A stretch of DNA of 64,000 nt from Vicinamibacterales bacterium (GCA_965216615.1 CBDCGH010000013.1:6307-70306), one strand, 5' to 3'. Positions 1 to 19,534 are shown, counted from the first letter of the stretch. Numbers and translations: made by a program. Notes: generated from the sequence alone by a model not told the origin.

Positions 1-2
1 TC

Positions 3-563: not shown

Positions 564-579
564 TGCGGACGCGCTCGGG

Positions 580-3550: not shown

Positions 3551-3583
3551 GGTGTTGCGAGACGGCAGTGATTGTATCCCGGT

Positions 3584-4829: not shown

Positions 4830-4857
4830 TCTTCAGGGACCGCCTCTGGACAACACG

Positions 4858-6840
4858 TCAGAACCGGTAGCCAACCAACGCGGTCACGACGTGCGAGCTG
4901 TAGTCATCGAAATCGAAGTCTTGCTCGTTCAGGGAATTGTACTGGTAGCTCAAGTTGAGCACATAGCCGGCCGGCGATGGCAACTCGACGAAGAACCGGT
5001 ACTGCTCCCAATCGAGCCCAAACGTGCCCCGATTGCGATAGGTGAAGATCTCGGTGCCGACCGCCAGCGCGTCGGACAGCTCGGCGCGCGCTCCGCCGGA
5101 TGCCATGTCGAGGTTCGACTCGTAGAGAGCCGCGATCTCGAACATGAGGCCGCCGAGGAAACCGGGCTCGGTCACGATCTGGTTCACGACTTCGTTGCTG
5201 ACGTCGCGGCGGCTGTACCCACCGAACACCGAATAGCGGTCCCGCGCGTAGGTCACTTTCAACCCGAGATCGGTCGTCCGCAGGGTCGCGGGTGCACCCG
5301 TTCGGGGCTGCGTGGGATGGATGCTCCCTGCAAGGTCGTTCTCGATCCGCCGCGTCAGAAACGTGCCGACCACGGCCACGCCCTCCGCGGGCCGAAGACG
5401 CGCGCGGAACTTCACCCGGTCCATACTCGTGGGCGCCACGAGCGTGAACGGGTTGTCGTAGCTCCCTCGCTCGTATTCGGCCAGAAAGTTGACGTGGCGC
5501 GCCGGCGCAAGGACGCCAGTCACGAAGAAGTTGTTCTGCGACGTTTCAACGTGGAGCCCGCCGTCGTGTCCAGGATCTGCGATGTCCGCGAAGGCGAGGC
5601 CCTCGACAAACCGTGTATCGCGGTCCTCAAACCGGTACCCCGCCGTGACGGTCACGGCCTCGGTCGGGTACATTTGGGCGCCGACTTCCAAGGTGCCGGT
5701 GGCGATCTCGATGCGGGTGGGCTGGCTGACATCCGGCAGCCGGAACTCACCCTCCTGCTCGAGATCGGAGTAGCGAAAGCCGCCAATGGCCGCGACATGC
5801 GTGTTGATGTCGTACATCACGTCGATGTCAGTGAGCTTCGTCGTCCGACGCAAATCTCCCTCGCCACGCTCGAAGGTATCGAGCGGGGCGCCCGTGAACT
5901 GAATGCCGCGGGCGACCTCCTGCTCCGTGAATTGCGCATCGAGCGTGCTCAACACCAACCCGGCGTTGACGGTCAGCCGTTCGGTCGGTCGCACATTGAG
6001 CTTGGCCGTCGTCTGCGGCATCGTGAAATCAAAGGGGAGCAGCTGCTCGTAGAAAAACAGCTCCGTAGGGTCGTCCGGCGCCGCGTTTTCGCCCAGAGAG
6101 GCGCCCGGCAGGAACACCCGTCCGTCTGACTCGTAATCGCGATACGTCTGATCGAAGTACACCGACCCCTGATCCAAATAGATCTCGAACCCGACGGTGT
6201 AGTCGCTCTTCGTCTCGTCGAGCGGACGATCGAGCTCGAACTCGTCCCGTGAGATATCCAGTGACGTCGTTGATTCCCCAAGACGCGTCTGACGGTTGAG
6301 CTTGACGAAGACCTTGGCGCGTCGCGAGAAGTTGAAGTCGAAGTCGATTCGATCGTTGACGCGGTTGAAGTCGAACGTATGGAAGTCACCGCCAGTGCTC
6401 TTGTCGATGTCGGCAAGGTCATGAGGCAGCAGGGTATCGCGATAGAAATACTGCGACTCGTTCCGCCTAAACCGGAAGTTGAACCGCCCGTACTCCTTGA
6501 GCGTGACGCCGAAACTCTGGAATGGGTCACCGAGCCCAGTGGCGTCGACGCTGAGGATGTCGAATGGTCCCTCGTCCGTCGTCGGGGTAACGTTGAGATC
6601 GAAGTCAAAGAGCCTGGGACCAGTTCGGTAGTTGAGATCCTCGAAGAACTTGTTCTCGTTTCCGCGACTGTCGCGCCACCGGAACCCGAGGTCGAATCGG
6701 CCGTCGACATTGAACGGGGCCTGCGCGTCTGAGCTCTGCACCGCCGCTGGTGTCTCATTCGCGCGGTCCTGTGCCGTCACGGCGCTGACCCAGCCCATCA
6801 CGGCCAGGAACGCGGCGGCGGATGCGACGCATCTCAGCAT
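4858..6840 (-). CDS. MtrB/PioB-like outer-membrane beta-barrel porin
   Basis: 660 aa, signal peptide, amphipathic beta-strands, C-terminal GYRF, directly downstream of a decaheme cytochrome. Confidence 0.8.
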   Translation of the reverse strand: MLRCVASAAAFLAVMGWVSAVTAQDRANETPAAVQSSDAQAPFNVDGRFDLGFRWRDSRGNENKFFEDLNYRTGPRLFDFDLNVTPTTDEGPFDILSVDATGLGDPFQSFGVTLKEYGRFNFRFRRNESQYFYRDTLLPHDLADIDKSTGGDFHTFDFNRVNDRIDFDFNFSRRAKVFVKLNRQTRLGESTTSLDISRDEFELDRPLDETKSDYTVGFEIYLDQGSVYFDQTYRDYESDGRVFLPGASLGENAAPDDPTELFFYEQLLPFDFTMPQTTAKLNVRPTERLTVNAGLVLSTLDAQFTEQEVARGIQFTGAPLDTFERGEGDLRRTTKLTDIDVMYDINTHVAAIGGFRYSDLEQEGEFRLPDVSQPTRIEIATGTLEVGAQMYPTEAVTVTAGYRFEDRDTRFVEGLAFADIADPGHDGGLHVETSQNNFFVTGVLAPARHVNFLAEYERGSYDNPFTLVAPTSMDRVKFRARLRPAEGVAVVGTFLTRRIENDLAGSIHPTQPRTGAPATLRTTDLGLKVTYARDRYSVFGGYSRRDVSNEVVNQIVTEPGFLGGLMFEIAALYESNLDMASGGARAELSDALAVGTEIFTYRNRGTFGLDWEQYRFFVELPSPAGYVLNLSYQYNSLNEQDFDFDDYSSHVVTALVGYRF

Positions 6841-6846
6841 GAGCCG

Positions 6847-7791
6847 CTATCGAAGGAAGTGCGGATCGAGATTTGACCCGTGGATCGTCGAGTGGCAGTT
6901 GACGCAGTTGGTCGTCGAATCGAAGCGAACGGCCGGACCGAAGCCCTTATGGAAGCCGGGTACCGCGACGTGACACGAATAGCACAGGTCACCATTCGAC
7001 TGGTACTGGAGAAGATGGCGGTTGGGCGAACCATGAGGCACGTGGCACGATGTGCAGCCCTCAATACGACTGCTCAGGTGCTCGAAGACAAAGGGGCCAC
7101 CCTTGTCCGTGTGACATCCGATGCACGTCTCCTGCTTGAATCCCCCGAGTCGACTCCGGGCGCTCGGGCCGTGCTGACCGTGACAATCGGCGCATGTGAC
7201 CATCCCCTCGAGCACGCGGTGCCGTTCATTGAGATGGAGTTCGGCGCGAACCTCTACGTGGCAGCCGAGACAGGCATCGGTCTGCGCACCCGCCAGCAGG
7301 CGATCGCGTCCCGATGCGTCGTGCACCAGATGACATGACGCGCAATCGACCGCTCCCTTCATGTGAGCGCCGGCGCGGTAGTCGAAGTTGGTGACCTCGG
7401 ACGCATGGCAGTCCAGGCACTGTCCAGCGTGGTCCGTCGCGGTGGCCAGGGTATTGAGGGAGTCGAACAGCACCCGGACGTTCTCAGGGTCCTCGACATG
7501 GGCCAAGCCCGGACCATGGCACGACTCGCAGCCGGTCGCGGGCCAGTCACCGGTCTCGGTCTGGAAATGCACGGAGGCACGATAGTCGTCGTACTGATCC
7601 TCGTGGCAATCAGCACATTCCTCCGACCCGACGAATCCGAGATTCTCGGGCACCTGCGCCTCAGCTATCGCCCCAGGATTCTCGGCGGCCGCCCTGGGCG
7701 ACACCCAGACCGCAAGAGCCAGGGCCAAGCCCCACATCAACAGGAGGGCCGGTATCAACGTGACCCTCCTGTTCGCATTCACGCCGCCCAC
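6847..7791 (-). CDS. DmsE/MtrA-family decaheme c-type cytochrome
   Basis: Ten CxxCH motifs, GPFVFEH, and the typical C-terminus CVNCHSTIHGSN...FLR. Confidence 0.92.
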   Translation of the reverse strand: MGGVNANRRVTLIPALLLMWGLALALAVWVSPRAAAENPGAIAEAQVPENLGFVGSEECADCHEDQYDDYRASVHFQTETGDWPATGCESCHGPGLAHVEDPENVRVLFDSLNTLATATDHAGQCLDCHASEVTNFDYRAGAHMKGAVDCASCHLVHDASGRDRLLAGAQTDACLGCHVEVRAELHLNERHRVLEGMVTCADCHGQHGPSARSRLGGFKQETCIGCHTDKGGPFVFEHLSSRIEGCTSCHVPHGSPNRHLLQYQSNGDLCYSCHVAVPGFHKGFGPAVRFDSTTNCVNCHSTIHGSNLDPHFLR

Positions 7792-7975
7792 TCCGGTCTG
7801 AATTGCAAACGGACTGCTAGCGGCTCTCGATGCACGCTGGACCCGCCCGTGAGGCCAAGCGGTGAGAACCGACCATCGAGGGTGTGATTGGACGCGGGGA
7901 ATTTTCAGGAGCGAAGGAGGGATTTCACAGCTACGTCACCAGCGGCTCGGAGCTATTGGATTCGTGGTCTGACGC

Positions 7976-8617
7976 TCACCGACACGACACGCCCGTGCCG
8001 CCGAGGCCGCAGTACCCCCCGGGGTTCTTGGCCAGGTACTGCTGATGGTACTCCTCGGCATAGTAGAACGGACCGGCCGCCTCGATCTCCGTCGAGACCG
8101 GTTCATAGCCGGCATCCGCCAACGCGCGCTCGTAGCGGTCACGCGAGGTCTCGGCAAGCCGCTCCTGGTCCTCGGACGTGTAGTAGATGCCCGAGCGGTA
8201 CTGGGTGCCGACATCGTTACCCTGCCGCATGCCCTGGGTGGGATCGTGGCTCTCCCAGAACAGATCGAGGAGCTCAGCGAAACCGACACCTGCCGGCTCG
8301 AACACAACGAGCACAACCTCGTTGTGACCAGTCATGCCGCTGCAGACCTCACGATACGTGGGATTCGGGGTGACACCCCCCGAGTACCCCACCGCGGTCG
8401 TGTAGACACCCGGGAGCTCCCAGAACGTTCGCTCAGCCCCCCAGAAGCAGCCCATGCCGAGAATCACCTGCTCAGTTCCGGCTGGAAACGGCGGCTCGAG
8501 ACGTGCGCCGTTGACAAAGTGGGTCGACGGGACCGACATCGCTTCCTCGCGACCAGGTAGGGCGTCGGCGGCGGACGGGACCCTCAGCTTCCTGGGATCT
8601 GCGTGCAGTCTGAACAT
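7976..8617 (-). CDS. msrA: Peptide-methionine (S)-S-oxide reductase
   Basis: [29 protein letters not shown]. Start placed at MFRLHAD. Confidence 0.95.
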
Positions 8618-8727
8618 GGTGCTCCAAGCGTACCCAAACGAGGGGCCCGACGGCCAGCTTGCGACTTTTGTGGTGTGGTTTTGGTGATAGGCTGTACCCT
8701 CGCAGTCGGGCGCGACGAGAGGACCGC

Positions 8728-9750
8728 ATGACCAAGGAATACACCGCAAAAGTCCCATCGCAGCGGATCACGCCACCAGACATCTTTTTCGACCGTCGCA
8801 AATTTCTCGGGACGTTCGGGATGGGTCTCGTCGCGGCGCCGTTCCTGGGGTGCGCCGTGGGAGCTACGCAACGGCCGCAATCCACAATCATCGACGTCCC
8901 GTTTCAGCGACCCGACGTGTTCCCGACCACGCGGAATGCGGCCTACGATATTCCCGCGACGATCAGCGGCAAGCTGACTCCCCGAGAGGCTGCCGCTGCG
9001 CACAACAACTTCTACGAGTTCCTCTCGGGACGCGGCGGACCCGTCTGGCGGTTTTGTGGGGATTTCGATGTCGACCCGTGGCAGATCAAAGTGTCAGGGG
9101 AATGCAACAACCCGATGACACTCGACCTTGATGACGTGTTCGCCTTCGACCACGAAGAGCGCGTCTACAATTTCCGCTGCGTCGAGCGGTGGTCGATGAA
9201 CGTCCCATGGTCTGGATTCCCGCTCAGCGAACTGATCAAGAAGGCCGACCCGACTGCTCGGGCAAAGTTCGTGAGATTCGAGACCGCGAACAGGCCCAAC
9301 CAGATGCCGGGGATGGCCTCGTCGGCGTGGTATCCATGGCCCTACCAAGAAGCCCTGCGAATTGACGAAGCGATGAACGAGCTCGCGATGGTCGTCACAG
9401 GGGTGTACGGAGAGCCACTGCTCCGACAGCATGGCGCGCCGGTTCGGATCATCGTCCCGTGGAAGTACGGGTACAAGAACCCGAAGTCGATCGTGAAGAT
9501 CGAGTTTCTCCGCGACGAACCGACGGTCTTCTGGCAAGAGACGATCCCGCACGAGTACGGCTTCCTTTCCAACGTGAATCCAAACATTCCGCATCCTCGC
9601 TGGTCGCAGGCCCAGTCATACTGGCTGGACACCGAGGAACTATTCGGCACGCCGATCTTCAACGGCTACGACGAGTACGTCGGAGGCTTGTACCCCGACG
9701 AGCCTCGAGAGCGACAGCGGCCGCTGCAGAAGGGGCAGCGGGCACGCTAG
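8728..9750 (+). CDS. msrP: Protein-methionine-sulfoxide reductase catalytic subunit (Mo, Tat-exported)
   Basis: ITP...RRKFL Tat motif, [37 protein letters not shown]. Confidence 0.92.
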
Positions 9751-9751
9751 T

Positions 9752-11296
9752 GTGGACGCACCAAGCGGTGCCCAGCCGCTGATCCGACCGGACGACGAGT
9801 TCAATCGGCAGCTCGTTGCCAACGTGCATCCCCCGGCGTGGACGAACCCGCGCCCTGCCGACCGTTACAACCTCGTGGTCGTCGGTGCGGGGACGGCTGG
9901 ACTCGTCACCGCCGTCATTGCCGCCGGGCTCGGTGCGCGGGTCGCGTTGGTCGAGCGACATCTGATGGGAGGCGACTGCCTCAACGTCGGGTGCGTGCCT
10001 TCGAAGGGCCTGATCCGGGCATCGCGAGCGTGGGCTGCACTTCGCGGAGGCCAGGAATTCGGCCTGCGCGTTCCTCCCGGTCTCGAGCACGATTTCGCAG
10101 CGGCGATGAGCCGCATGCGACGTCTGCGGGCCCAGCTGAGCGAGATCGACTCGGCCCAGCGGTTCACCGACCTCGGCGTCGACGTCTTCATTGGTGCCGG
10201 ACAGTTCACTGGCGCCGACACGATCGTGGTCGATGGGCAGACGCTTCGCTACAGTCGGGCCGCCATCTGCACCGGCGCAAGAGCAGCCGCACCACCCGTG
10301 CCAGGGCTCGACGCGGCCGGCTACCTGACCAACGAAACGATCTTCGAGCTGACTGAGCGTCCGCCCCGATTGGCCGTCATCGGCGCCGGTCCGATCGGCA
10401 GCGAGATGGCCCAGTCGTTTGCGAGATTTGGGAGTCAGGTCACGGTGTTCGAGCGTGCCGACCGCATCCTCCCGCGGGAGGACGCCGACGCGGCGGCCGT
10501 CGTGCAAGCGCAAATGGAGCACGACGGCGTCTCGTTTGCGCTCGGAGCCGACGTGATCGAAGTTCAGCGACGGGAGGCAGAACGCGTCATTCGCTTCACG
10601 ACAGACGGGCCTGAACGAACCGTGGCTGTCGACCAGATTCTGGTCGGCGTGGGCCGGGCCCCCAACGTCGAGGGGTTGGGATTGGAAGCCGCCGGCGTCC
10701 GATATGACAAGAAGGGGGTTGAGGTCACTGCGTCACTGCAGACGTCCAACCCCAGAATCTATGCAGCCGGCGATATCTGCTCGGCGTACAAGTTCACGCA
10801 TACCGCCGATGCGGCGGCTCAAATCGTCATCCAGAACGCGTTGTTTCCTCATCCGTTCGGGCTCGGACGGGCTCGCACTGACGCCCTGATTATTCCGTGG
10901 TGCACGTTCACCGAGCCCGAGATTGCCCATGTGGGCCTTTACGAGGCTCAGGCCCGTGACCGGGGCATCGACGTTGACACCTTTACGCAGCCGTTCGATG
11001 AGGTCGACCGCGCCGTGCTAGACGGCGAAGATCGCGGATTCGTTCGCGTGCACGTGAAGAAAGGCACCGATACGATCCTTGGTGCCACGATCGTGGCGGG
11101 GCATGCGGGTGACATGATTAGCGAGCTGACGCTCGCCATGAAAGCCGGGACCGGTCTTGGCTCGATTGGAGCGACCATTCATCCGTATCCCACCCAGGCG
11201 GATGCGCTCCGCAAGGTCGCGAACGCAATGCGGCGATCCCGGTTCTCCGAGCGACAGCGGTCGATACTGAGCCGTTGGTTCGGCTGGACGCGATAG
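9752..11296 (+). CDS. Pyridine nucleotide-disulfide oxidoreductase (mercuric reductase/LpdA-like)
   Basis: GAGTAG, GGDCLNVGCVPSK, GAGPIG, HPYPT. No C-terminal Cys-Cys pair. Confidence 0.88.
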   Translation: MDAPSGAQPLIRPDDEFNRQLVANVHPPAWTNPRPADRYNLVVVGAGTAGLVTAVIAAGLGARVALVERHLMGGDCLNVGCVPSKGLIRASRAWAALRGGQEFGLRVPPGLEHDFAAAMSRMRRLRAQLSEIDSAQRFTDLGVDVFIGAGQFTGADTIVVDGQTLRYSRAAICTGARAAAPPVPGLDAAGYLTNETIFELTERPPRLAVIGAGPIGSEMAQSFARFGSQVTVFERADRILPREDADAAAVVQAQMEHDGVSFALGADVIEVQRREAERVIRFTTDGPERTVAVDQILVGVGRAPNVEGLGLEAAGVRYDKKGVEVTASLQTSNPRIYAAGDICSAYKFTHTADAAAQIVIQNALFPHPFGLGRARTDALIIPWCTFTEPEIAHVGLYEAQARDRGIDVDTFTQPFDEVDRAVLDGEDRGFVRVHVKKGTDTILGATIVAGHAGDMISELTLAMKAGTGLGSIGATIHPYPTQADALRKVANAMRRSRFSERQRSILSRWFGWTR

Positions 11297-11327
11297 CGTC
11301 TCGTCCACATCCTGGACGCTGGAGAAG

Positions 11328-11840
11328 TCAGCCACCCGCGGCTGGATGGAGCCCGCGCATCTCGCGCACAATGCTGACGAAACGCTCGGGCTGGTCTGGA
11401 GACACGACGACGACGCGGTCAGCAAACGTCAGGACGACCGCGCGCTTGGGATCCATCACGAACGCCCGATATCTCCCGAGGGTACGGTTACGAAAGAAGC
11501 CACTGATTGAGAAGAAGCCGCCGTTGCCCCAGAGGCGAAGCGACCAGCGCATCGCATTTGGATTGTGTTCGATAGCCCGGAGCCCGGAGAGATCGAGCGG
11601 TGTCGCCCACCAAAGGCGTCGAATCAGCAACCTCGAACCTGCAAGCTCGTACCCACGAACCATGAACGCCGCGCACCCAACGACAAGCGCGATCGGAAAT
11701 GCCGTCATCAACATGCCGAGCCCCCCTTGGACGGGGGACAGCTCAGCAAGCATGTAGAGCACGAACGTCAGAATCGTCAGCGAGAGGGCGGTCAGAAGCT
11801 TGACGCTCGTCCCCCACGGCGCCCCGAACCGGTCAGACAC
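11328..11840 (-). CDS. Membrane protein with bacterial PH-like domain
   Basis: Two TM helices, then 'LRLWGNGGFFSISGFFRNRTLG...VVVSPDQPERF'. Confidence 0.7.
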   Translation of the reverse strand: MSDRFGAPWGTSVKLLTALSLTILTFVLYMLAELSPVQGGLGMLMTAFPIALVVGCAAFMVRGYELAGSRLLIRRLWWATPLDLSGLRAIEHNPNAMRWSLRLWGNGGFFSISGFFRNRTLGRYRAFVMDPKRAVVLTFADRVVVVSPDQPERFVSIVREMRGLHPAAGG

Positions 11841-11943
11841 GGACTAACACCTCCTGGAGCGGACCCACCACGGACCATTATGTACCCAGTAGAATCGTGG
11901 CGTGGTCGCGCTCGTCCAGACGGCCGAATCCTGGAGCTCGAAG

Positions 11944-12168
11944 ATGCAGATTGCCATCACCTATTGCGGTCGTTGAAAGTACCTGCCACGGGCCTCCAGT
12001 CTGGCGGCCGATATCAAGCGCGCGCTCGGCGTCGAAGCCGAGCTCATCGAGGGCAGCAACGGAATCTTCGACGTCGTGGTCGACGGCGCCGTAATCTTTT
12101 CCAAGTATGACGTGCACCGGTTTCCAGAGCCCGACGAAATCGTCGACGCGCTTCGAAAACGCGACTAG
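11944..12168 (+). CDS. SelW/SelT/SelH (Rdx family) selenoprotein, CxxU
   Basis: Translated by hand: MQIAITYCGR-U(tga 11974-11976)-KYLPRASSLAADIKRALGVEAELIEGSNGIFDVVVDGAVIFSKYDVHRFPEPDEIVDALRKRD*. GGAG RBS upstream. Confidence 0.88.
11991..12009 (+). promoter_or_regulatory. Putative bacterial SECIS hairpin of the SelW-like gene
   Basis: ggcc-t-cc-agtct-gg-c-ggcc stem-loop beginning 14 nt after the UGA. Confidence 0.6.
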
Positions 12169-13910
12169 TATCCGGCCGCCTGGCCATCTTTGCGCGGGTC
12201 GCTTCCGCCGTGCAGCATCCCAGTCGTCGGGTCGATCATGATGGCTTGATAGCCGCCCATGCTCGCACCTCCGGCCCGCTGAACGCGGTGGCCCAGCCGC
12301 AGGAGTTGGTCGATGACGCGATCCGGAATCCCCGGCTCGACGAGAACGCCGTTGCCGTGTCGAACCCGCGCCGCATCACCGGCCTCCTGGACATTCATGC
12401 CGAAGTCGATGATGTTCGACAATACCTGCACGTGTCCCTGGGGTTGCATGTCCCCGCCCATGACGCCGAACGGCATGAGCGGCGAGCCGTCCTTGGTCAC
12501 GAACCCGGGCATGTTGGTGTGCAGCGACCGCTTGTGGGGTTCGAGACTGTTCCGGTGGCCCGCCTCGAGTGAGAAGCCCAGCCCTCGGTTCTGCAGCGCG
12601 AATCCAAGGTCGCCCGGAACCACGTTCGATCCGAAGTTCGCGAAGATGCTTTCAATGAGCGAGACGGCGTTGCGGTCCTTGTCCACGACTGTCAGGTACA
12701 CCGTCTCACTGTGCGCGGACGGGTTCCCGGCGGAGACGGACGGGAGCGCCTCGGTCGGGTCGATGCGCGCCCGCCGGGCTGCTGCGTAGGCTTTCGAGAT
12801 CAGCTCGTCGACTGGCAGCGTGTTGGCATCGGCGTCTGCAACGAACGTGTCCCGATCAGCAAACGCCAGCTTCTTGGCTTCAACGATGACGTGCAGTGTC
12901 TCGGCGGTGTTATGCCCCATGGACGCGATGTCGAAGCCCTCAAGAATGTTCAGCATCATGAGGGCGATGATCCCAGAGCTGTTCGGCGGGATCTCCCAGA
13001 CGTCGTATCCGCGATAGTTCGTCGACACCGGCTCAACCCACGTCGACGTATGGTCCTCGAAGTCTTGGGTCGTGAAGAAGCCGCCGTTCGACTCGCTGAA
13101 CGAGACGATCTGACGGGAAATCGGCCCACGGTAGAATGCGTCGCGCCCGCCGTTGGCGATCGCCTCATACGTGTTCGCCAGGCCGGGATTCCTGAAGATC
13201 TCGCCGACTTCTGGCGGGCGTCCGTTCGGGAGGTAGGTTCGAGCCGAGTCGGGCCACTGCGCGAGGGACATCTGGGATGCTGACCATTGGCGCTGAATGA
13301 CTTCGGTCACGGGGAATCCGTTGCGGGCGTACGCAGTGGCGGGCGCCAGCACATCGGCAAAGCTCATCGTGCCAAACCGCTTCAGCAGCTGGTCCCAGCC
13401 ATCGACTGCGCCAGGGACTGTCCACGGCAGCGGACCATTTGCTGGCACCCGTTCAAGCCCCTGACGCTCGAATACCTGGCGGTTGAGCGCGTAGGGCGCT
13501 CGCCCCGTTGCGTTGAGGCCGTAAAGCTTCTCCGACTCGGCGTCCCACACGATCGCGAACAGGTCGCCGCCCACGCCGTTCATGTTTGGCTCCACCAAGC
13601 CGAGCATAGCGTTCACCGCGACAGCCGCGTCGATGGCGTTTCCGCCAGCCTTGAGGATGTCGAGCCCGACCTGCGCCGCAAGCGGCTGACTGGCCGCCAC
13701 CATACCCGTCGGCGCGATGACCTCAGAACGGCTGGAGTGCGGACTTCGAGCGGGGCGGCTGTACCCGTGACTCAGCGGGCTGCCGGGCTGTTGCGCAACC
13801 AGGGGGCCGCCTGGACCACTCGTGCTCAGAAACGCAGCCAACACGAGCAATATCTGTCTACCGCGGGACCATGTTGTACTGGGGTTTGTCATGGGGGTTG
13901 TCATTGGCAC
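12165..13910 (-). CDS. ggt: Gamma-glutamyltransferase (signal peptide)
   Basis: GGNAIDAAVA, VPGAVDGW, catalytic 'SETVYLTVVD', GVMGGDMQPQG, SDPRKDGQA. Confidence 0.93.
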   Translation of the reverse strand: MPMTTPMTNPSTTWSRGRQILLVLAAFLSTSGPGGPLVAQQPGSPLSHGYSRPARSPHSSRSEVIAPTGMVAASQPLAAQVGLDILKAGGNAIDAAVAVNAMLGLVEPNMNGVGGDLFAIVWDAESEKLYGLNATGRAPYALNRQVFERQGLERVPANGPLPWTVPGAVDGWDQLLKRFGTMSFADVLAPATAYARNGFPVTEVIQRQWSASQMSLAQWPDSARTYLPNGRPPEVGEIFRNPGLANTYEAIANGGRDAFYRGPISRQIVSFSESNGGFFTTQDFEDHTSTWVEPVSTNYRGYDVWEIPPNSSGIIALMMLNILEGFDIASMGHNTAETLHVIVEAKKLAFADRDTFVADADANTLPVDELISKAYAAARRARIDPTEALPSVSAGNPSAHSETVYLTVVDKDRNAVSLIESIFANFGSNVVPGDLGFALQNRGLGFSLEAGHRNSLEPHKRSLHTNMPGFVTKDGSPLMPFGVMGGDMQPQGHVQVLSNIIDFGMNVQEAGDAARVRHGNGVLVEPGIPDRVIDQLLRLGHRVQRAGGASMGGYQAIMIDPTTGMLHGGSDPRKDGQAAGY

Positions 13911-13951
13911 CTCAGTTTCGCCTCACGCAGTAGTCGTTGTCTTCAGTGTCT

Positions 13952-15679
13952 TCATTGTCCCGATTGTGCCGCCGGGGCTACCGGACGGGTTGTCGGGAGT
14001 CGTTCGTCGTACCCACGCTGAACGCCGACCGTCTCCCATCCATCGTCCGTGCGACGGAAGTGCACCAGGGCCGAGCGCAGCCACTGAGGATGCTCTCGGT
14101 GGACACCGCGGATGACCACGGCCACATAGTCGGACGCATCAAGGAGATCGCTCGGAGCGTCGGCAGCGGGGCGCTCGACCCACTCTTCAGCCCCGTATGG
14201 CTCACGCTCGTGCGTAACATTGTCGAGCCGGTACCAGCTCAACACGTAGGACTGCGGGCTGGTCGCGGCCCCGGCGCGAACCGCGGCGTTGCCAAACGTC
14301 AGCCGCCCACCCGCACTCAACTGAAAAGACTCGACCGGATTCAGCTGATTCAGCCAGTGGCGCGCAACCTTGTCCCGGCGAATCTTCAGCGTTTCCACGA
14401 TGTACTCGGCCGCGGTCGAGTCGGAGTACTGAGCGCGGGATACCACGGCACTGATGGCATCGTCAGACAAGCGTGACACGATGCGGGCGGCCCAAAACCC
14501 GTCGTCGGTTCGAAGGTTGCGGAACGCCGGGTTTGGATACTCCGGTCTCCAGCTCTCAGGGTCGAACGAGTCAGACTCGAATCGTCCGACGCTCACCGGA
14601 ACATCTGGATACCGAACGCGGAGCCACGGGCGCACGTACAGGCCTAGCGACGCAAGCGTCTTGAACCCCTTGCCCCAATCAAGGATGTATTCGTTCCCCG
14701 CACGCGCCTCGCTCGCGAGCCCTGGGCCGCCGCCCATGATCGAGCCAAAGTCGAACATGTAGTGTTTGACGTGCTGTCCCTGCGGGCGTTGTACCAGCAC
14801 GTCGAGCGAGTTGATGCCGCGTGAGTCGACATGGTTGAGCCACGCCGCAAACACGCGATTACCCCTCAGCTCGCGGCGATGTTCGTGGGAGAACAGGTCG
14901 TTGGGATCGTCGCTGCGCGTGCCGTAGTAGCGGAAGGGACCCAAGCTGAGACCCCCGACGAAACGACTGGCCACCGCACGGTACTTTCCGTTGGGCCTAC
15001 GCGCCGCCCGGTCGAAGACCTCGTCGACATCAAGTCGAGTGAACGGCCGACGCTGGCCCTCGACCTCGATGGTCGCGTTTGGCACCACAAAGACCTGGTC
15101 GGGATCGACCTCCACCAGATAGGCCTCGGGCACGTTGAACCCGATCGCGTAGTAGAAGAGTGACCCGATGATCTCGGCACCCGACGTCCGCTCCGGAAAC
15201 TCACGGGGATCGAACTCGATCTGGTACACGGCACCGTCTGGTGCGACGACCCGCCACCCAGGGGTGCGGCCCCGTCCCTTACCCTCGACGATTGGCCAAC
15301 CGTCGACGTCGAGCTGCTCGAATCGGTTGGGTCCCCGCATGAGCTCGTCCAGCGTCAGGTCCTGGTGTCCGATGCGGTTCGAAAACCAGGTCGACGCCGG
15401 AACTTCGTCCACCGTATTCGTGTTGAGCGCGCGAATCGGCTCGTCGTCGCCGGGCGTCAGAAACGTGTTCTCGATGAAGTCGTAGTATTCGCTTGGGGGT
15501 ATCGAAGTCACGTCGCGCACGTCCACGACGGTATCGTGATCCTCCCAGATCGGATCATCCGGGAAGAACATGGGACCTTGGGCGATGGGATGGGCGCCGA
15601 ACAGCGCGGCGCTACATGCCACCGCGAGCGACAGCAGGATCAGTCCCGTCGATGCCCGCCCGCGTCGGTCAGAAGACAT
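13952..15679 (-). CDS. Exported hypothetical protein with atypical kinase motifs, copy B
   Basis: Colinear paralog of 580..2301 (FPDDP, NTVDEVP..WFSNR, GPFRYYGTRSDDPND, WLNHVDSRGIN, FDFGS, YPNPAF). The beta3 Lys position reads QIEFD. Confidence 0.7.
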   Translation of the reverse strand: MSSDRRGRASTGLILLSLAVACSAALFGAHPIAQGPMFFPDDPIWEDHDTVVDVRDVTSIPPSEYYDFIENTFLTPGDDEPIRALNTNTVDEVPASTWFSNRIGHQDLTLDELMRGPNRFEQLDVDGWPIVEGKGRGRTPGWRVVAPDGAVYQIEFDPREFPERTSGAEIIGSLFYYAIGFNVPEAYLVEVDPDQVFVVPNATIEVEGQRRPFTRLDVDEVFDRAARRPNGKYRAVASRFVGGLSLGPFRYYGTRSDDPNDLFSHEHRRELRGNRVFAAWLNHVDSRGINSLDVLVQRPQGQHVKHYMFDFGSIMGGGPGLASEARAGNEYILDWGKGFKTLASLGLYVRPWLRVRYPDVPVSVGRFESDSFDPESWRPEYPNPAFRNLRTDDGFWAARIVSRLSDDAISAVVSRAQYSDSTAAEYIVETLKIRRDKVARHWLNQLNPVESFQLSAGGRLTFGNAAVRAGAATSPQSYVLSWYRLDNVTHEREPYGAEEWVERPAADAPSDLLDASDYVAVVIRGVHREHPQWLRSALVHFRRTDDGWETVGVQRGYDERLPTTRPVAPAAQSGQ

Positions 15680-17018
15680 TGCTGAATTTCAGTATCAGTT
15701 GGCTGCCGTCGCGACTGCCCAGCGCCCAGTCAAGTCGGAAATAGACGCCGTTGTCCGTACCAATTCTGAACCCCGTGCCCCAATTCGCTTCAAAATCCTT
15801 GAAGTTGATCTCGCGCCTGTTCGACGCGACCTTGCCGGCATCGTAGAACAAGACCGCGTCCAAGGCCGGAAAGAGCTCCCAGCGATACTCCGTCTGCAGC
15901 AGCACCAGGTGGCGGTCTCGAAGCCGAAAGTCGCGGAACCCCCGCAGGGAGTGAGATCCTCCCAACCACTGCTGAAGATAGAACGGGACGGTGTGGCCTC
16001 GCCGTGGATCTGAAAACGACGCCAGCCCCCTGAACGCCAGCACCCGCCGGCCGCGCAGAAACGACACGTACTGTCGTACGTCGACCTCCCAGCGTTCAAA
16101 GGAGAAGCGGTCGAGCTCGGAGTCTGCAAAGTAGCTGTACGCAACCCGATACCGTCCCCCTGTTCGCGGATTGTCGACCGGCGCCCCGAAGTCGAGCTCG
16201 GCAAACACGTAGGGCCGAATGAAGACAGGCTGCTCGGACAATCCCGGCGCTTCGAAATCGGTAAACACCTCTTCGAGCGAGGGATAGGCCGAGTCCTTGC
16301 CGCTCCCGATGCTCGGGTTGATATACGACACTCCCCCGCCCAGCGACAACCAGCGTGAGAGCCGGACGCCTCCGGTCGACTCGACTGAGGTTTGTAGATG
16401 GCGAAAGTTGACCCGGTCCTGAAGCCGTGAATTCGGACCGGGACCAAAGTAGTCTTCTTCCGGGTAATCCGACCGGCGCGCCAGCACGCTGGCGAACGCT
16501 CGACCGCCGGCCAGCCGGGGAAATGCCGCCTCGACCTCGCCCATCCAGTAACGCCGCATGGACACCGCGCCTCGAACCGACAGTTCAACTTGGCGCCCCA
16601 GGCGCGCACTCGTGTTGTACCCGGTGCCGAGGGTGAGACCCGCGCCCGTGGTGATATTCCCAAGCGTGAAGTAGTACCCCCCCGAGGACGGCGATGGCTC
16701 CTCGAAGAGGTTCTCGATCGTTTGCTCGTTCTCGAGGTTGATGAGGAGACGCTCGAGGCGTCCAGCCCGATACGGCTCCACCGTGTCCAGACGGGCTTCG
16801 CGCTGGCGCCTGAGCTGTTCTTGCCGCGTCGCGGGATCGGCGGGGTCGGGGTCACGCTCGGTTTGACCGAATACGACCGCAGAGGAGAGGACGGCGGCGA
16901 CGCTAAGCGACGCGATTGCGGCGACGACACACGGACGGAAACTGGACGGAGTCACGTTCCACGCTTCAATACTCGAGCCGGTTTCAGTGTGGTGAGTGCC
17001 CGACCGGCAGTCTATCAC
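15669..17018 (-). CDS. Omp85/BamA-TamA-family barrel without POTRA domains, copy B (start may be about 16955)
   Basis: Signal peptide, LGGSHSLRGFRDFR, QTEYRW, FYDAGKV, C-terminal Phe. Confidence 0.82.
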   Translation of the reverse strand: MIDCRSGTHHTETGSSIEAWNVTPSSFRPCVVAAIASLSVAAVLSSAVVFGQTERDPDPADPATRQEQLRRQREARLDTVEPYRAGRLERLLINLENEQTIENLFEEPSPSSGGYYFTLGNITTGAGLTLGTGYNTSARLGRQVELSVRGAVSMRRYWMGEVEAAFPRLAGGRAFASVLARRSDYPEEDYFGPGPNSRLQDRVNFRHLQTSVESTGGVRLSRWLSLGGGVSYINPSIGSGKDSAYPSLEEVFTDFEAPGLSEQPVFIRPYVFAELDFGAPVDNPRTGGRYRVAYSYFADSELDRFSFERWEVDVRQYVSFLRGRRVLAFRGLASFSDPRRGHTVPFYLQQWLGGSHSLRGFRDFRLRDRHLVLLQTEYRWELFPALDAVLFYDAGKVASNRREINFKDFEANWGTGFRIGTDNGVYFRLDWALGSRDGSQLILKFSNVF

Positions 17019-18460
17019 GAGGGTTCCCGCAGCGAGAGCTCGTGGGATGCCAACACGTAGCTTGCCGCATCGACACGCTGTTTGCGGACGCCGGACGCGA
17101 GTGTTCCGAGCACGATTCCAGCGCGATCGGCAAACTCGTCGCGCGCGGTCACCCTCGCGAGCCGAGCCAGCAACGCCGCCGTGCGGCAGTTCGCGACAAA
17201 TGGCGTGATGGGTTGCCGGAGCAACCCGATGTCGTCGTCCGCCACCACGCGATCGACGAAGACCCGCGATGACTCGCTCCAGAGCCGCCGCATCGCGAAC
17301 AACGTCAGCTCTTGGGCCAGATCGAGATACGCGTCACGCTCAGCAGCCTGATACGCGTCGAGAAGAGCCTCGCCCAGAGCAACCTGGTCGGTCAGTAGAC
17401 CGTGCTCGCTCGCGGGGGTGTCGACGCGATGACACACGCCATTGCCAGGGCTGTACGCCTCGCCGGCGACATGATCGAGGACGCCGATGGCGAACTCCAA
17501 CAGCGACGAATCGCCGAGTCCCTCGCTGGCGCGCATGAAGGCGCTGGCCATTTGAGCGTTGCCGGCGGTGTACACCGCGCGGTCGACCGTTGCATCCTGA
17601 CTCGCAAAGAACGCGTGGCCCGTGGTGTCCGTGAGCATCCGCCGGACATAGACGATCACGTCGGCGGCGCGCTGATAGTACCGGGCCTCGTCGAGGGCCA
17701 TGCCGCCCTCGAGGAAGGCACGGAGCGCCGAGGCATTGACCTCGAGCAGTTTCTCTGGGCTGGGTTCGGTCCAGTCGCGCCGAGCACAACACCGGAACAC
17801 GCCGCCCTCGGCATCATCGAAGATCGGGCTCCAGCCGATGGCATCGAGCGTCCGTGTGATGATCGGGCCCATCGCCGCGTCGCCGGCCCTGTAGCGGGCG
17901 GCGGCTAGCACGAGCGCATCGGCGGGGACGTGCTTCGCGGACCGACCAAACCCGCCGTGCTCGTCGTCGAACGCGTCGAGCAGGTGATTGACGACCCACG
18001 GCTCAACCTCGATTGGCACCGACTCGCCCGGCGGCGCAGATCGAGACGGGGCGGGGCCGGCCGTGGGGGCAGGCGGAGTCATCATGAGCTCGTCACCTCG
18101 CGCCGCGAATGCCTTCGCGACGCGGCGCAGCAGGTCGACCATCGACGACGGATCGGTAAAGCGCTGTCCCCCGAGCAGTCGACCATCCGGCGTCAGAAAG
18201 GCTGTCGTGGGCCACCCACCGAGGCCGTAGCGATCGGCAATATCCGGCCGGTCGTCCGCGTCGACCCAGACCGGCACGAAGTTTGTCTCGATCAGGTCGA
18301 TCACGACGTCGTCGCGATAGGTCGTGCGACGCATCTCGGCACATCCGTGAGACCAGTGCGTGGCAAGCATGAGGAGAACGGGCTTGCGCGCCTGCCGCGC
18401 ACGGAGAAACGCGTCGTGTTCCCACGACAGCCAGTAGGGCGGGCCGGGCGGTGTCGACAT
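17015..18460 (-). CDS. DUF255/YyaL (SSP411-like) thioredoxin-domain protein
   Basis: WSHGCAEM, VDADDRPDI, GGWPTTAFLTPDG, FDDEHGGFG, EKLL. Confidence 0.82.
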   Translation of the reverse strand: MSTPPGPPYWLSWEHDAFLRARQARKPVLLMLATHWSHGCAEMRRTTYRDDVVIDLIETNFVPVWVDADDRPDIADRYGLGGWPTTAFLTPDGRLLGGQRFTDPSSMVDLLRRVAKAFAARGDELMMTPPAPTAGPAPSRSAPPGESVPIEVEPWVVNHLLDAFDDEHGGFGRSAKHVPADALVLAAARYRAGDAAMGPIITRTLDAIGWSPIFDDAEGGVFRCCARRDWTEPSPEKLLEVNASALRAFLEGGMALDEARYYQRAADVIVYVRRMLTDTTGHAFFASQDATVDRAVYTAGNAQMASAFMRASEGLGDSSLLEFAIGVLDHVAGEAYSPGNGVCHRVDTPASEHGLLTDQVALGEALLDAYQAAERDAYLDLAQELTLFAMRRLWSESSRVFVDRVVADDDIGLLRQPITPFVANCRTAALLARLARVTARDEFADRAGIVLGTLASGVRKQRVDAASYVLASHELSLREPS

Positions 18461-18526
18461 CGGTTTTCAGGCGGTGGAAGACCGGGCGATTATAATGATC
18501 CGTTTGGCAGGCCTTGGAGACCCGCG

Positions 18527-19534
18527 ATGCAACACCACGTCACGCTCATTCCCGGAGACGGCATTGGACCCGAGGTCACCGAGGCCGTACTCACCATCCT
18601 CGACCACTCCGGCGTGAAGATCGAGTGGGACCGTCACGAAGCTGGAACGGCCACGCAGAAGCGCACCGGCACGTCACTCCCGGCCAGCGTACTCGACGCG
18701 ATCCGTCAGAGCCAGGTGGCCCTGAAGGGTCCCGTGGCGACGCCGATCGGTGGCGGGTTTTCGAGCGTCAACGTCGAGATTCGTCGCTCGCTCGGGCTCT
18801 ATGCGAACGTCCGACCGGTGTTCAACCTCCCGGGCGTTGCGAGTCGTTTCGAGAATGTCGACCTCGTCGTTATCCGGGAGAACACCGAGGACTTGTATTC
18901 GGGACTCGAGCACGAGGTGGTCCCGGGCGTCGTCGAATCGCTCAAAGTCATCACGCGGGTCGCGTCCGAACGTATCGCCCGCTTTGCCTTTGAGTTCGCC
19001 CGCCGCAAGCAGCGCCACCTCGTGACCGCCGTGCACAAGGCCAACATCATGAAGATGAGTGACGGCCTGTTCCTGGAATCGGCTCGCTCGATCGCCGCGG
19101 AGTTCGAGGACATAACCTATGAGGAGCGCATCGTCGACGCGACGAGCATGCAGCTCGTGCTGAACCCGTCCCAGTTCGACATGCTGCTACTGCCCAACCT
19201 CTACGGTGACATCGTGTCCGATCTGTGTGCCGGACTGGTCGGCGGGCTCGGCCTCGTGCCCTCAGCCAACCTGGCTGACGGCATTGCGGTCTTCGAGGCG
19301 GTCCACGGTACCGCACCGGACATTGCGGGCCAACAAATCGCGAACCCGACTGCGCTCCTGTTGTCAGCCACGCTGATGCTTCGACACCTCAATGAGGACG
19401 CCGCTGCTGATCGAATCAGCACCGCGCTGAACACCGTGCTTAGGGAAGGCGCCGTCCGCACACGGGACCTCGGTGGCACGGCATCGACGATGGGGTTCGC
19501 GAAGGCGATCTGTGGTGAGCTCACTCCTCCGTGA
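18527..19534 (+). CDS. Isocitrate/isopropylmalate dehydrogenase family protein (NAD-IDH-like)
   Basis: LIPGDGIGPE, RENTEDLY, VHKANIMK, NLYGDIVSDL, EAVHGTAPDIAG. A TATAAT lies upstream near 18492-18497. Confidence 0.92.
   Translation: MQHHVTLIPGDGIGPEVTEAVLTILDHSGVKIEWDRHEAGTATQKRTGTSLPASVLDAIRQSQVALKGPVATPIGGGFSSVNVEIRRSLGLYANVRPVFNLPGVASRFENVDLVVIRENTEDLYSGLEHEVVPGVVESLKVITRVASERIARFAFEFARRKQRHLVTAVHKANIMKMSDGLFLESARSIAAEFEDITYEERIVDATSMQLVLNPSQFDMLLLPNLYGDIVSDLCAGLVGGLGLVPSANLADGIAVFEAVHGTAPDIAGQQIANPTALLLSATLMLRHLNEDAAADRISTALNTVLREGAVRTRDLGGTASTMGFAKAICGELTPP

Follow-up and report, generated by a model that had tools for sequence, protein, structure and literature searches.

It is common for Omp85 proteins to function together with partners in the periplasm, as in BAM and TAM, where a BamA/TamA-type barrel is combined with lipoproteins or with an AsmA-like bridge, TamA and TamB being encoded side by side. 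Omp85-superfamily barrels co-encoded with an enzyme or cargo are found in type Vb secretion (TpsB/TpsA), in which TpsB carries two POTRA domains and TpsA a TPS domain, and in PlpD (type Vd). Short barrels of the noNterm type are portrayed in two accounts (Heinz & Lithgow 2014, PMC4104836; Leptospira LIC12252/12254/12258, PMC11358297) as 16-stranded, with a short periplasmic N-terminus, no POTRA, an (L/M)RG(W/Y)-type motif in L6 and an FxDxG motif. In the Leptospira paper, the passages on these features define the lid-lock by (L/M)RG(W/Y/F), a loop 6 motif, and FxDxG, a strand 13 motif, treat DUF5982 (IPR046024) as the signature of the Leptospira/Cytophagales noNterm group, call noNterm function "poorly understood", and name DUF1566 and Big-domain lipoproteins, and no kinase-fold partner, as neighbours (PMC11358297).

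An atypical kinase fold outside the cytosol is found in the secretory-pathway kinases Fam20C/Fam20A and the spore-coat kinase CotH. CtkA, like Fam20 and CotH, is a secreted or extracytoplasmic kinase, and lumenal kinases need an ATP/ADP exchanger in the membrane of their compartment. Kinases are marked by a catalytic-loop D-x-[KR]-x-x-N motif, the metal-binding Asp of DFG and a beta3 Lys that pairs with the Glu of alphaC, and CtkA (Helicobacter pylori JHP0940, PDB 3akj/3akk) and the HipA-like kinases follow the same D-x-[RK]-x-x-N and DFG-type Asp logic. Fam20A is an example of how one family can include catalytic as well as pseudokinase paralogs (PMC5413348).

In a soil acidobacterium (Vicinamibacterales bacterium, GCA_965216615.1), a gene for an Omp85 barrel is followed by one for an exported kinase-fold protein, a two-gene unit that is previously undescribed: a search of open-access papers and bioRxiv found none that connects a kinase-fold partner with an Omp85 barrel. 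The window, that is the whole 64,000-nt stretch of DNA that was analysed (CBDCGH010000013.1:6307-70306), contains two such units, modules A and B:

580-2301, minus strand: module B partner K_B, 573 aa, with K kept at the beta3 position
2301-3550, minus strand: module B barrel, here in two frames (2603-3550 and 2301-2687)
12165-13910, minus strand: gamma-glutamyltranspeptidase (ggt) with signal peptide, downstream of module A (PF01019, E 4.7e-158)
13952-15679, minus strand: module A partner K_A, 575 aa
15669-17018, minus strand: module A barrel, 449-aa ORF from GTG 17018
17015-18460, minus strand: DUF255/thioredoxin-like protein (Thioredox_DsbH), 481 aa, upstream of module A (PF03190, E 4.3e-20)

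The stop codon of the DUF255 gene overlaps the barrel GTG at 17018 by 4 nt, and an alternative GTG at 16955 would yield a 428-aa barrel. The ATG of K_A lies within the last codons of barrel A (ATGTCTTCTGA), with an overlap of 11 nt, and ggt begins 41 nt past K_A. Scanning 11800-19000 for sigma-70 promoters and terminators found none above shuffles.

An earlier note on this DNA had described module A as a diverged second copy of a barrel and kinase-like module about 10 kb away, which was borne out. The intact barrel and partner at 13952-17018 and their counterparts at 580-3550 lie on the minus strand with 10.4 kb between them (3550 to 13952), the partners measure 575 and 573 aa, the barrel precedes the partner in both, and both junctions overlap, in module B through a stop and a start that share one base (TAATG). 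Both copies contain the motifs that had been quoted for the partners (NT.DEVP.S.WF.NR, GPFRYYGTRSDDPND, RRELRG, YPNPAF) and for the barrels ([TS]R.E.L...R...EPY, RGFR.[YF]R, EYRWE, FYDAGKV). K_A and K_B are 39% identical over 534 aa (E 1e-120), and the barrels 38% over 108 aa in their C-terminal part (E 3e-23) and only 24% over 84 aa in their N-terminal part (E 0.002). The DNA is clearly diverged, as had been proposed, with a global identity of 55.8% between the partner genes and just two short stretches, at 68%, found by blastn between the modules.

A genome-wide count of copies gave four modules, namely the diverged lineages A, B and C and a near-identical duplicate of B. Barrel B is split by a 1-nt deletion near 2716, as judged from a 99.6% identical intact copy of 416 aa on another contig (C23), and PF01103 matches its C-terminal piece with 39.5 bits. 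This frameshift, the two extra copies, and the TLC-transporter and PAP2 neighbours of relatives (see below) were absent from the earlier note.

Barrel A is a member of the Omp85 superfamily, POTRA-less (noNterm-type) and with a 16-stranded barrel of the BamA/TamA type. PF01103 was the sole Pfam family reported on it (Pfam scan, E ≤ 0.01), with 48.2 bits (cut-off 24) and a match at residues 283-433 that covers the C-terminal half of the model only; NCBIfam NF047779 (Omp85_fam) scored 72.7 bits, below its cut-off of 200, and at model positions 241-423 only. The AlphaFold2 (AF2) model has 16 strands and a pLDDT of 85.8 overall and above 90 across the barrel. A signal peptide is followed by ~50 aa of periplasmic N-terminal helices (residues ~61-105; modelled at 65-79, 87-97 and 99-105), so that residues 48-113 hold three short helices only, and POTRA domains were found neither by Pfam (E ≤ 0.01) nor in the AF2 model. 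Foldseek matched the barrel to those of BamA/TamA (E 3.3e-13, TM (target) 0.67-0.79), and FhaC was not among its best 50 matches. The lid-lock motifs are present as LRGFR at 358-362 and FYDAG at 391-395, and R359, F391, D393 and G395 are invariant in 57 barrel homologs. Barrel A thus shares strand number, motifs and short N-terminus with the described noNterm proteins and differs in that this N-terminus is a conserved helical pair, a predicted dock for the enzyme of the next gene. The same genome carries three large canonical Omp85 genes elsewhere.

The partner has no family of its own in the databases searched: neither Pfam (E ≤ 0.01) nor NCBIfam reported one for K_A, and K_B likewise lacks a Pfam match. 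In K_A, a signal peptide and an extension that wraps around at the N-terminus (~35-120) come before the kinase-like domain (~118-445), and an FN3-like sandwich (~445-557) forms the C-terminus; AF2 modelled the protein with a pLDDT of 93.1 and a pTM of 0.91. VIA-align placed CtkA first (Z 14.3, rmsd 3.5, 223 aligned), followed by Fam20 (DrFam20C1, 13.7), PI4KIIalpha (12.7), CotH (12.4) and HipA (11.4), with 14 kinase-fold chains at Z 10.2-14.3 covering K_A ~118-445. Foldseek also returned CtkA as the best match (E 1.7e-4), and the seven matches at E ≤ 0.001 consisted of six CtkA chains and one Hydra Fam20. These comparisons of the predicted model support a protein-kinase-like (PKL) fold with an atypical bilobal kinase domain, and the "kinase-like" label of the earlier note holds at the level of the fold, with D-x-R-x-x-N and DFG-like motifs in place.

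Sequence relations are far weaker. A PDB sequence search with K_A alone gave nothing at E ≤ 10, and the PDB matches of the family profile, armadillo-repeat proteins only, were rejected as chance. HipA_2 (PF20613) matched 14/72 relatives weakly (best E 3.1e-4) and HipA_C (PF07804) 7/72 (best E 0.012), and K_A and K_B have no match at E ≤ 0.01; the partner family is a remote relation of the HipA-like kinases and not a member of them. Identity to CtkA/HipA-like proteins is 11-15%, and K_A differs from them by its signal peptide, conserved N-terminal wrap, invariant RxDDPND loop and FN3-like C-terminal domain; moreover, the partner is encoded with an Omp85 barrel in nearly all loci and not in a toxin-antitoxin pair. 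Fam20 and CotH have no detectable sequence relation to K_A, which is predicted to act in the bacterial periplasm, docked to a beta-barrel. The Protein Atlas returned unannotated clusters of the same family only, with Fam20C, HipA_2, LepB_N and PI3_PI4 as sub-0.9 leads. This family comprises 3308 clusters at 50% identity with E ≤ 0.001 and more than 4165 matching clusters at 90% identity, and the 120 matches listed were all named "hypothetical protein", none with a Pfam domain. Eight long relatives (668-1158 aa) were inspected as potential Rosetta-stone fusions and showed no Pfam family and no similarity to TLC, barrel, PPK2 or BON proteins. The extensions of five of these eight have a motif in common.

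Catalytic residues of K_A were assigned from sequence order and secondary structure, not from superposed coordinates. K_A, K_B and K_C all have D285, R287, N290 and D310-F-G; across 123 close homologs E169, D285, N290 and D310 never vary and R287 is kept in 121, while N290 and D310 are also invariant in 98 partners paired with a barrel. The N-lobe departs from this: the beta3 position, occupied by K in 64/72 diverse relatives and in K_B and K_C, is E155 in K_A, and the otherwise conserved D146 is an A. E at 155 occurs in 48/123 close homologs and 26/98 paired partners, only together with Q153 (26/26 paired, 48/48 close homologs) and mostly with R143 (23/26 and 48/48). A canonical kinase would be crippled by E at the beta3 Lys and A at 146, and as read from the sequence, K155E and D146A leave catalysis by K_A uncertain.

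The barrel-partner pair is nearly obligatory, and it duplicates and diverges as a unit. In its own genome, a barrel lies directly upstream and on the same strand for 4/4 partner genes, and the same holds for 100/103 other loci having upstream DNA: 25/26 in the phylum sample, where the exception stems from an unpublished genome (G049), and 75/77 in loci from genome contigs, which were gathered with a 12-row partner alignment. The partner was found in 40/201 sampled genomes, all 40 of which also have this barrel type; at least three of the sampled genomes (G112, G100, G016) have the barrel type and no partner, and two loci (L061, L067) have the partner and no barrel.

Trees of barrels and partners, built from 98 pairs with FastTree rather than by a more thorough search, were then compared. 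The Mantel r was 0.85, reached in 0/999 permutations (highest 0.21), and 52/95 bipartitions were common to both trees, with a mean of 0.25 and a maximum of 2 after shuffling. The 40-row partner clade with module A was recovered exactly in the barrel tree, and the nearest neighbour was the same in both trees for 59/98 pairs. Incongruent trees or random pairing, named in the earlier note as outcomes that would speak against a unit, were thus not found, although congruence is partly expected of any two adjacent genes. A and B fall into different deep clades of both trees, each with nearest relatives of its own in other families of the phylum (B groups with loci L019 and L015 in both), and module A is an old paralog of B, as had been suggested.

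The two proteins of module A are predicted to bind each other. The predicted complex of barrel A and K_A reached an ipSAE of 0.84 (runs 0.85, 0.84 and 0.84), with 0.00 for the best of three controls, and this mark is reached by 116/157 solved complexes and by 2/215 mismatched pairs; the score is the model's own confidence, from alignments built for this analysis. Runs agreed in at least 95% of contacts, the partner pLDDT was 88, and to my knowledge there is no solved complex of an Omp85 barrel and a kinase fold from which the model could recall the pose. In the predicted interface, the N-terminal periplasmic helices of the barrel sit on the partner's invariant RxDDPND loop, and the barrel's periplasmic turns 321-325 and 378-390 take part. 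It includes the most conserved non-catalytic residues of the family, namely 255-260 of the partner and R65, R73, E89 and E96 of the barrel, and gives precise test mutations with barrel R65 and R73 against the DDPND loop.

The flanks of the pair change. A DUF255 gene was found near the module in 0/107 related loci and a GGT gene in 2/107, there upstream, and three kin genomes and three metagenome loci had neither; a conserved DUF255/ggt context was consequently rejected. Scanning metagenomes with K_A alone yielded four loci only, at 43-48% identity, and no closer context for module A. The earlier proposal that the pair is a functional unit reused in varied contexts is supported by these changing flanks, by the barrel upstream at 4/4 and 100/103 loci, by the congruent trees, and by a complex prediction that passes its controls.

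A recurrent neighbour in relatives is a TLC-family gene (PF03219), a distant match that scored 26-75 bits against a cut-off of 21 in module neighbours that also match MFS_1. It is directly adjacent on the same strand in 19/107 loci and within the fetched flank in nine more, with no TLC in the fetched flanks of 79/107 loci, 28 of which had 1.5-kb flanks only. Both gene orders are seen, each of the three major partner clades has examples, and on the tree its presence or absence implies 12 changes or more. PAP2 follows the partner at ≤72 nt in 10/79 loci. The operon of module A contains no TLC gene, the TLC matches of this genome being located on contigs C23 and C2 and on C14:1-4486 (outside the window or upstream of it); neighbours of the TLC and PAP2 kinds, present in the sister clade, are missing from module A. 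Module B lies ~2.4 kb from a TLC-HEAT-cNMP gene on the opposite strand and ~0.9 kb from a PPK2 gene. The idea that K155E tracks the loss of TLC was not supported, with TLC nearby in 8/26 E-types and 20/72 K-types. In the parts of Major et al. 2017 (PMC5381601) that treat NTTs of free-living bacteria, including NTT-HEAT-cNBD, their function is described as unknown and no link is drawn to Omp85 barrels or exported kinases; the neighbour seen here is likewise PF03219, and module B stands beside tandem NTT-HEAT-cNMP fusions of the architecture described there, whereas module A has no such neighbour.

Probably, these observations reflect a conserved two-gene envelope unit, in which a POTRA-less Omp85 barrel holds an exported kinase-fold phosphotransferase at its periplasmic face. 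Gene 1 encodes a 16-stranded BamA/TamA-type barrel in which a short N-terminal periplasmic helix pair replaces POTRA, and gene 2, translationally coupled, would encode a Sec-exported atypical kinase-fold enzyme with a C-terminal FN3-like domain. Going by the predicted complex, the folded partner would be held by the helices (R65, R73, E89, E96) and the two periplasmic turns, contacted at the FxPDDP segment of its N-terminal part, at the invariant RxDDPND loop and at the stretch that follows DFG. The unit would thus resemble BAM and TAM in joining a barrel to a periplasmic partner, one with a kinase fold in place of a lipoprotein or AsmA-like bridge. The partner may be a nucleotide-dependent phosphotransferase in the periplasm at the outer membrane, and its substrate a lipid/LPS or a protein handled by the barrel. 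In many relatives, the TLC/NTT-type ATP/ADP-transporter-like inner-membrane protein from the same operon is a plausible nucleotide supply, and the reverse reaction could plausibly be carried out by the PAP2 phosphatase; module A would have swapped these flanks for DUF255 and ggt.

Three other readings were weighed. Adjacent and coupled genes for barrel and cargo are typical of TpsB/TpsA operons, the closest structural relatives of the partner are CtkA, Fam20 and CotH, and a transporter role is discussed as open in the passages on Leptospira noNterm proteins (PMC11358297), all of which would fit a barrel that, in the manner of two-partner secretion, translocates the kinase-fold protein to the surface or medium as a secreted kinase like these relatives. 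Yet neither the POTRA domains of TpsB nor the TPS (haemagglutination-activity) domain of TpsA was found in module A (Pfam E ≤ 0.01), BamA/TamA and not FhaC came up among the best 50 Foldseek matches, and the predicted complex shows docking rather than threading, with a fully folded partner of ~60 kDa that sits beneath the periplasmic turns and is bound via the barrel's periplasmic N-terminus. A nucleotide carrier encoded in the operon and placed in the inner membrane would, moreover, feed the periplasm and not the outside, and I regard export through the barrel as quite improbable. That the two genes just travel as neighbours, with no physical or functional link, draws on the shared history of adjacent genes, by which congruent trees alone are no proof of interaction, and on the few orphan barrels and orphan partners. 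It is very hard to reconcile with an order and strand kept in 100/103 loci while flanks change, with overlapping start and stop codons, with paralog clades that match exactly between the trees, and with a complex prediction that passes against controls at 0.00 and puts conserved residues in the interface.

It is also rather unlikely, though compatible with several features of K_A, that the partner is a non-catalytic accessory, a pseudokinase scaffold or regulator that replaces POTRA domains or the BAM lipoproteins, perhaps with catalysis lost in the A lineage, in which case the Omp85 barrel would insert or handle a subset of outer-membrane proteins. The K155E and D146A changes that K_A shares with its closest orthologs, the lack of TLC and PAP2 neighbours that the sister clade has, and the position of the most invariant non-catalytic residues in the predicted barrel interface all point in this direction. 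However, K_A and essentially the whole family retain E169, D285, R287 (or K), N290 and D310, as dead enzymes do not usually do; E155 is confined to a Q153, mostly R143, background, which suggests a tolerated re-arrangement and not decay. The recurrent nucleotide-carrier and phosphatase neighbours also argue for chemistry.

Beyond the preferred reading of a barrel-held phosphotransferase, I tentatively suggest, as a possibility open to considerable doubt, that an extracytoplasmic phosphorylation system is fed with ATP and has this pair as its end at the outer membrane. An inner-membrane NTT/TLC carrier would deliver ATP to the periplasm and take up ADP in return, analogous to the exchanger of lumenal kinases, and the PPK2 polyphosphate kinase beside module B could help to regenerate nucleotide. 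The barrel-held kinase would then phosphorylate an outer-membrane lipid/LPS or a barrel-presented protein, and PAP2 would reverse the mark. For a large and entirely unannotated partner family, one small gene set makes the role of POTRA-less Omp85 proteins, that of NTTs in free-living bacteria, and nucleotide-dependent phosphorylation in the periplasm testable together. If true, the ATP-fed system would explain what noNterm Omp85 proteins do as well as what NTTs do in free-living bacteria, and it would overturn the working assumption that there are no ATP-dependent kinases in the periplasm. The paralogs A, B and C, with their K- and E-type N-lobes, would then be substrate specialists, or catalytic and regulatory forms like Fam20C and Fam20A.

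Module A, an Omp85 barrel gene followed by a kinase-fold partner gene (K_A), lies within four co-directional genes on the minus strand that run from 18460 to 12165 of the window:

17015-18460, minus strand: DUF255/thioredoxin-like gene, upstream flank of module A
15669-17018, minus strand: Omp85-family gene (by Pfam), the module A barrel
13952-15679, minus strand: 575-aa partner K_A, matching no Pfam or NCBIfam family
12165-13910, minus strand: gamma-glutamyltranspeptidase gene (ggt), downstream flank of module A

The barrel and partner genes share 11 nt at their junction. The end of the DUF255 gene shares 4 nt with the barrel gene if the latter begins at its first possible start, and a gap of 41 nt separates the K_A gene from ggt. 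The barrel may instead start at a GTG at 16955, and the resulting 428 aa are closer than 449 aa to the 403-430 aa of most barrel homologs.

A diverged second copy of the pair had been proposed from the sequence, and K_B (573 aa, 580-2301) indeed matches K_A with 39% identity over 534 residues (E 1e-120), with all of the quoted motifs found in both copies. The DNA is as clearly diverged as was claimed: the partner genes are 55.8% identical globally, and blastn between the modules returned only two ~120-nt stretches, at 68%. The observation of a second module is confirmed, except that barrel B is frameshifted in the window. The 315 codons of its N-terminal part (2603-3550) and the 128 of its C-terminal part (2301-2687) lie in different frames, while a copy on contig C23, 99.6% identical to barrel B, is open over 416 codons; relative to that copy, the window has lost one base near 2716. 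Barrels A and B are 38% identical in their C-terminal part (E 3e-23) and barely alignable in their N-terminal part.

Counting copies genome-wide (assembly of 4.8 Mb in 24 contigs, 95% complete, about 6.1% contamination) returned four partner genes, all immediately preceded by a co-directional Omp85 gene: modules A and B in the window, B' on C23, and C on contig C1, the last with a 4-nt overlap. B and B' lie within a 9.9-kb, 99.5%-identical stretch (C14:1-9865, including window 1-3559, versus C23:119020-129937; C14 is the contig that carries the window) that stops just upstream of the barrel B start. In the C23 copy (C23:119029-123026), an IS630-like element of ~1 kb, its transposase frame broken, is inserted precisely at the TA where barrel stop and partner start meet, so that each B copy is disturbed differently. 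The C14 copy additionally has a TLC-HEAT-cNMP gene split by a 14-nt deletion and a 12-nt in-frame deletion at window position ~9. The near-identical stretches may have arisen by a recent segmental duplication that is now decaying, or may belong to two strains that share a bin. Of seven Omp85 matches in the genome, three are large and canonical, and the module barrels are therefore extra paralogs.

The module A barrel scored 48.2 bits against Pfam Omp85 (cut-off 24), and its AF2 model, with a pLDDT of 85.8, has 16 strands and matched BamA/TamA barrels in Foldseek (E 3.3e-13). The loop-6 LRGFR and strand-13 FYDAG motifs, as defined in the part of PMC11358297 consulted, are present. No POTRA domain was found in the barrel; the model places three short helices (65-79, 87-97, and 99-105; numbering here and below follows the module A proteins) after the signal peptide, which is why it is grouped with the 'noNterm' Omp85 proteins. 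The function of these is termed poorly understood in the sections consulted of PMC4104836 and PMC11358297.

The partner carries an N-terminal signal peptide by inspection, and its AlphaFold2 model, built from a 72-sequence alignment, reached a pLDDT of 93.1 and a pTM of 0.91. Residues ~118-445 of the K_A model resemble atypical kinases: CtkA (Z 14.3; rmsd 3.5, 223 aligned), DrFam20C1 (Z 13.7), Hydra Fam20 (Z 13.2), PI4KIIalpha (Z 12.7), CotH (Z 12.4), HipA (Z 11.4), actin-fragmin kinase (Z 11.2), and MavQ (Z 10.7). Foldseek was concordant (CtkA, E 1.7e-4), and a predicted FN3-like sandwich follows at ~445-557 (Z about 8). The kinase trace in sequence is faint: Pfam HipA_2 was matched by 14 of 72 relatives (best E 3.1e-4), and K_A itself has no Pfam match. 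Five longer relatives (P0142, P0207, P0268, P0162, and P0129; 742-1158 aa) share a C-terminal extension with a conserved 'TTFEAVTNAL...LTDE.G' motif, for which no Pfam family was matched.

Kinase residues were assigned from chain order and model secondary structure, using general kinase motif definitions. The beta3 lysine would be at position 155, where 64 of 72 sequences have K, and the alphaC glutamate would be E169; D285-x-R287-x-x-N290 would form the catalytic loop, followed by a D310-F-G motif. E169, D285, N290, and D310 are invariant among 123 close homologs. At two positions where the family carries K and D, K_A has E155 and A146, respectively (residues 143, 146, 153, and 155 fall at about 15215-15253 of the window). 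E155 is also found in 48 of the 123 close homologs and in 26 of the 98 paired partners, always together with Q153 (26/26 and 48/48) and mostly with R143 as well (23/26 and 48/48). This suggests a variant carried by a whole lineage, not random decay, and one that may still bind nucleotide. The E155/Q153/R143 pattern may reflect a relocated basic residue by analogy with WNK kinases. A link between residue 155 and the presence of TLC genes (PF03219, ATP/ADP-transporter-like) was tested and came out negative.

Of 201 genomes sampled evenly across the phylum, 40 carry the partner (E <= 1e-20), and a barrel lay directly upstream in 25 of the 26 loci having upstream DNA (29 loci from other genomes), the exception being L016 from an unpublished genome, G049. 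In a second set of 79 loci, drawn from named genome records (chiefly MAGs of Vicinamibacterales and other Acidobacteriota), the barrel was found in 75 of the 77 with upstream DNA; the exceptions, L061 and L067, are partners without a recognisable barrel upstream. The barrel profile was matched by all 40 partner-positive genomes and also, mostly weakly, by 14 partner-negative ones, of which the strongest three (G112, L124; G100, L125; G016, L126) hold genuine barrels with no partner nearby. The orphan barrel of G016 adjoins a type I phosphodiesterase/nucleotide pyrophosphatase. Other arrangements include L050 (1713-10543), with three complete modules, one divergently oriented, within 9 kb of one Acidobacteriota MAG contig, and L105 (2458-6669), with two tandem barrels before a single partner.

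FastTree phylogenies of 98 barrel/partner pairs (leaving out loci whose genes are split or missing, the duplicate within this genome, and L016) were congruent, with a Mantel r of 0.85 that none of 999 permutations reached (maximum 0.21). The two trees share 52 of 95 bipartitions, against a shuffled mean of 0.25, and 59 of the 98 pairs have an identical nearest neighbour in both. Since shared history is expected of adjacent genes, the paralogs are the telling part: the 40-row partner clade with module A is an exact split of the barrel tree, the nearest relatives agree in both trees for B (L019 and L015) and C (L033), and the three modules of L050 agree in the same way. It follows that the module was duplicated as a whole and that the A/B split is older than the divergence of several families of the phylum, which bears out the suggestion of an old paralog pair.

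For complex prediction, the mature barrel (58-449) and the partner (34-566) were each supplied with their own alignment. The score was 0.84 (runs 0.85, 0.84, and 0.84), against 0.00 for the best of three controls; among solved complexes 116 of 157 attain this mark, among mismatched pairs 2 of 215. Contact agreement between runs was at least 95% and the partner pLDDT 88, and the prediction supports binding of the partner by the barrel. On the barrel side, the modelled interface comprises residues 61-98, which form the N-terminal helices and contain R65, R73, E89, and E96 (all nearly invariant), together with the periplasmic turns of strands 10/11 and 12/13 (321-325 and 378-390). On the partner side, it is predicted to comprise 35-70 with the conserved FxPDDP segment, the RxDDPND loop at 255-262, which is the most invariant stretch of the family, and 321-353 after the DFG motif. 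In this model, the previously listed 'T/SRxExLxxxR...EPY' and 'GTRSDDPND' blocks would be two sides of one interface, and a folded enzyme is predicted on the periplasmic face. Adjacency, the paralog-level tree match, and the complex prediction support the earlier note's reading of the pair as a functional unit.

That note also proposed reuse in different contexts, and this agrees with the neighbourhoods: the flanks of module A are not conserved, and other neighbours recur elsewhere. A DUF255 homolog was found in 0 of 107 related loci and a GGT homolog in two, upstream both times; neither gene was found in three kin genomes and three metagenome loci, and both flanks are particular to this genome. 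In 19 of 107 loci, a TLC/NTT-family transporter-like gene (26-75 bits against PF03219, cut-off 21, in eight examples, 7 of which also match MFS_1) is the immediate, co-directional neighbour of the pair, 10 times upstream of the barrel and 9 times downstream of the partner; L043 has one on each side. In 9 further loci such a gene lies elsewhere in the fetched flank, and in the other 79 of the 107 none was found; for 28 of the 107, the flanks covered only 1.5 kb. TLC cases occur in all three major partner clades, and presence/absence changes at least 12 times on the tree. In 10 of 79 loci the gene downstream of the partner, no more than 72 nt away, encodes a PAP2 phosphatase, and the clade nearest module A has the four-gene, same-strand order TLC-barrel-partner-PAP2 (L035, L037, L038, L040, L044, L048, and L053), several of these loci having a second TLC-HEAT gene ~3.8 kb upstream. 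Sigma-54 response regulators (17 loci) and MacB/FtsX genes (7 loci) are further recurrent neighbours.

Module B adjoins a BON-domain gene (its end at window 3-563), with a two-domain PPK2 polyphosphate kinase gene about 0.9 kb and a TLC-HEAT-cNMP gene about 2.4 kb away (C14:697-6869, just left of the window); on C23 the TLC-HEAT-cNMP gene heads a tandem pair. This is a nucleotide- and envelope-themed neighbourhood. The TLC-HEAT-cNMP gene has the same architecture as NTT-HEAT-cNBD proteins, described in the part of PMC5381601 consulted as occurring in free-living bacteria without known function. Elsewhere in the window, on the minus strand at 4858-7791, an outer-membrane protein of 660 aa that weakly matches the MtrB/PioB porin model (21.5 bits, below the cut-off of 23) is encoded next to a multihaem cytochrome c of 314 aa (Paired_CXXCH_1, E 6.8e-24); the two may be an extracellular electron-transfer-type pair.

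The gene pair is conserved and co-diverging, and combines BamA-type barrel and kinase-type folds. In the mechanism I consider most likely, the N-terminal helices of the barrel would hold the partner in a periplasmic complex, where it would act as a nucleotide-dependent phosphotransferase at the outer membrane, on lipid/LPS or protein; in many lineages, a TLC-type carrier would supply the nucleotide and a PAP2 phosphatase would counter the partner. Export of the partner by the barrel is a weaker reading, since secretion domains are absent and the predicted complex is periplasmic in its geometry. In the case of module A, a role as regulator or pseudokinase is a live alternative to phosphotransfer, given E155 and A146 and the loss of the TLC and PAP2 neighbours.

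A search of open-access literature and bioRxiv (supplements excluded) found no paper describing this pair. Among Omp85-with-partner systems it represents an undescribed variant, with a function that I infer, to which this analysis adds within-genome paralogy, an explicit co-phylogeny test, and a predicted interface.
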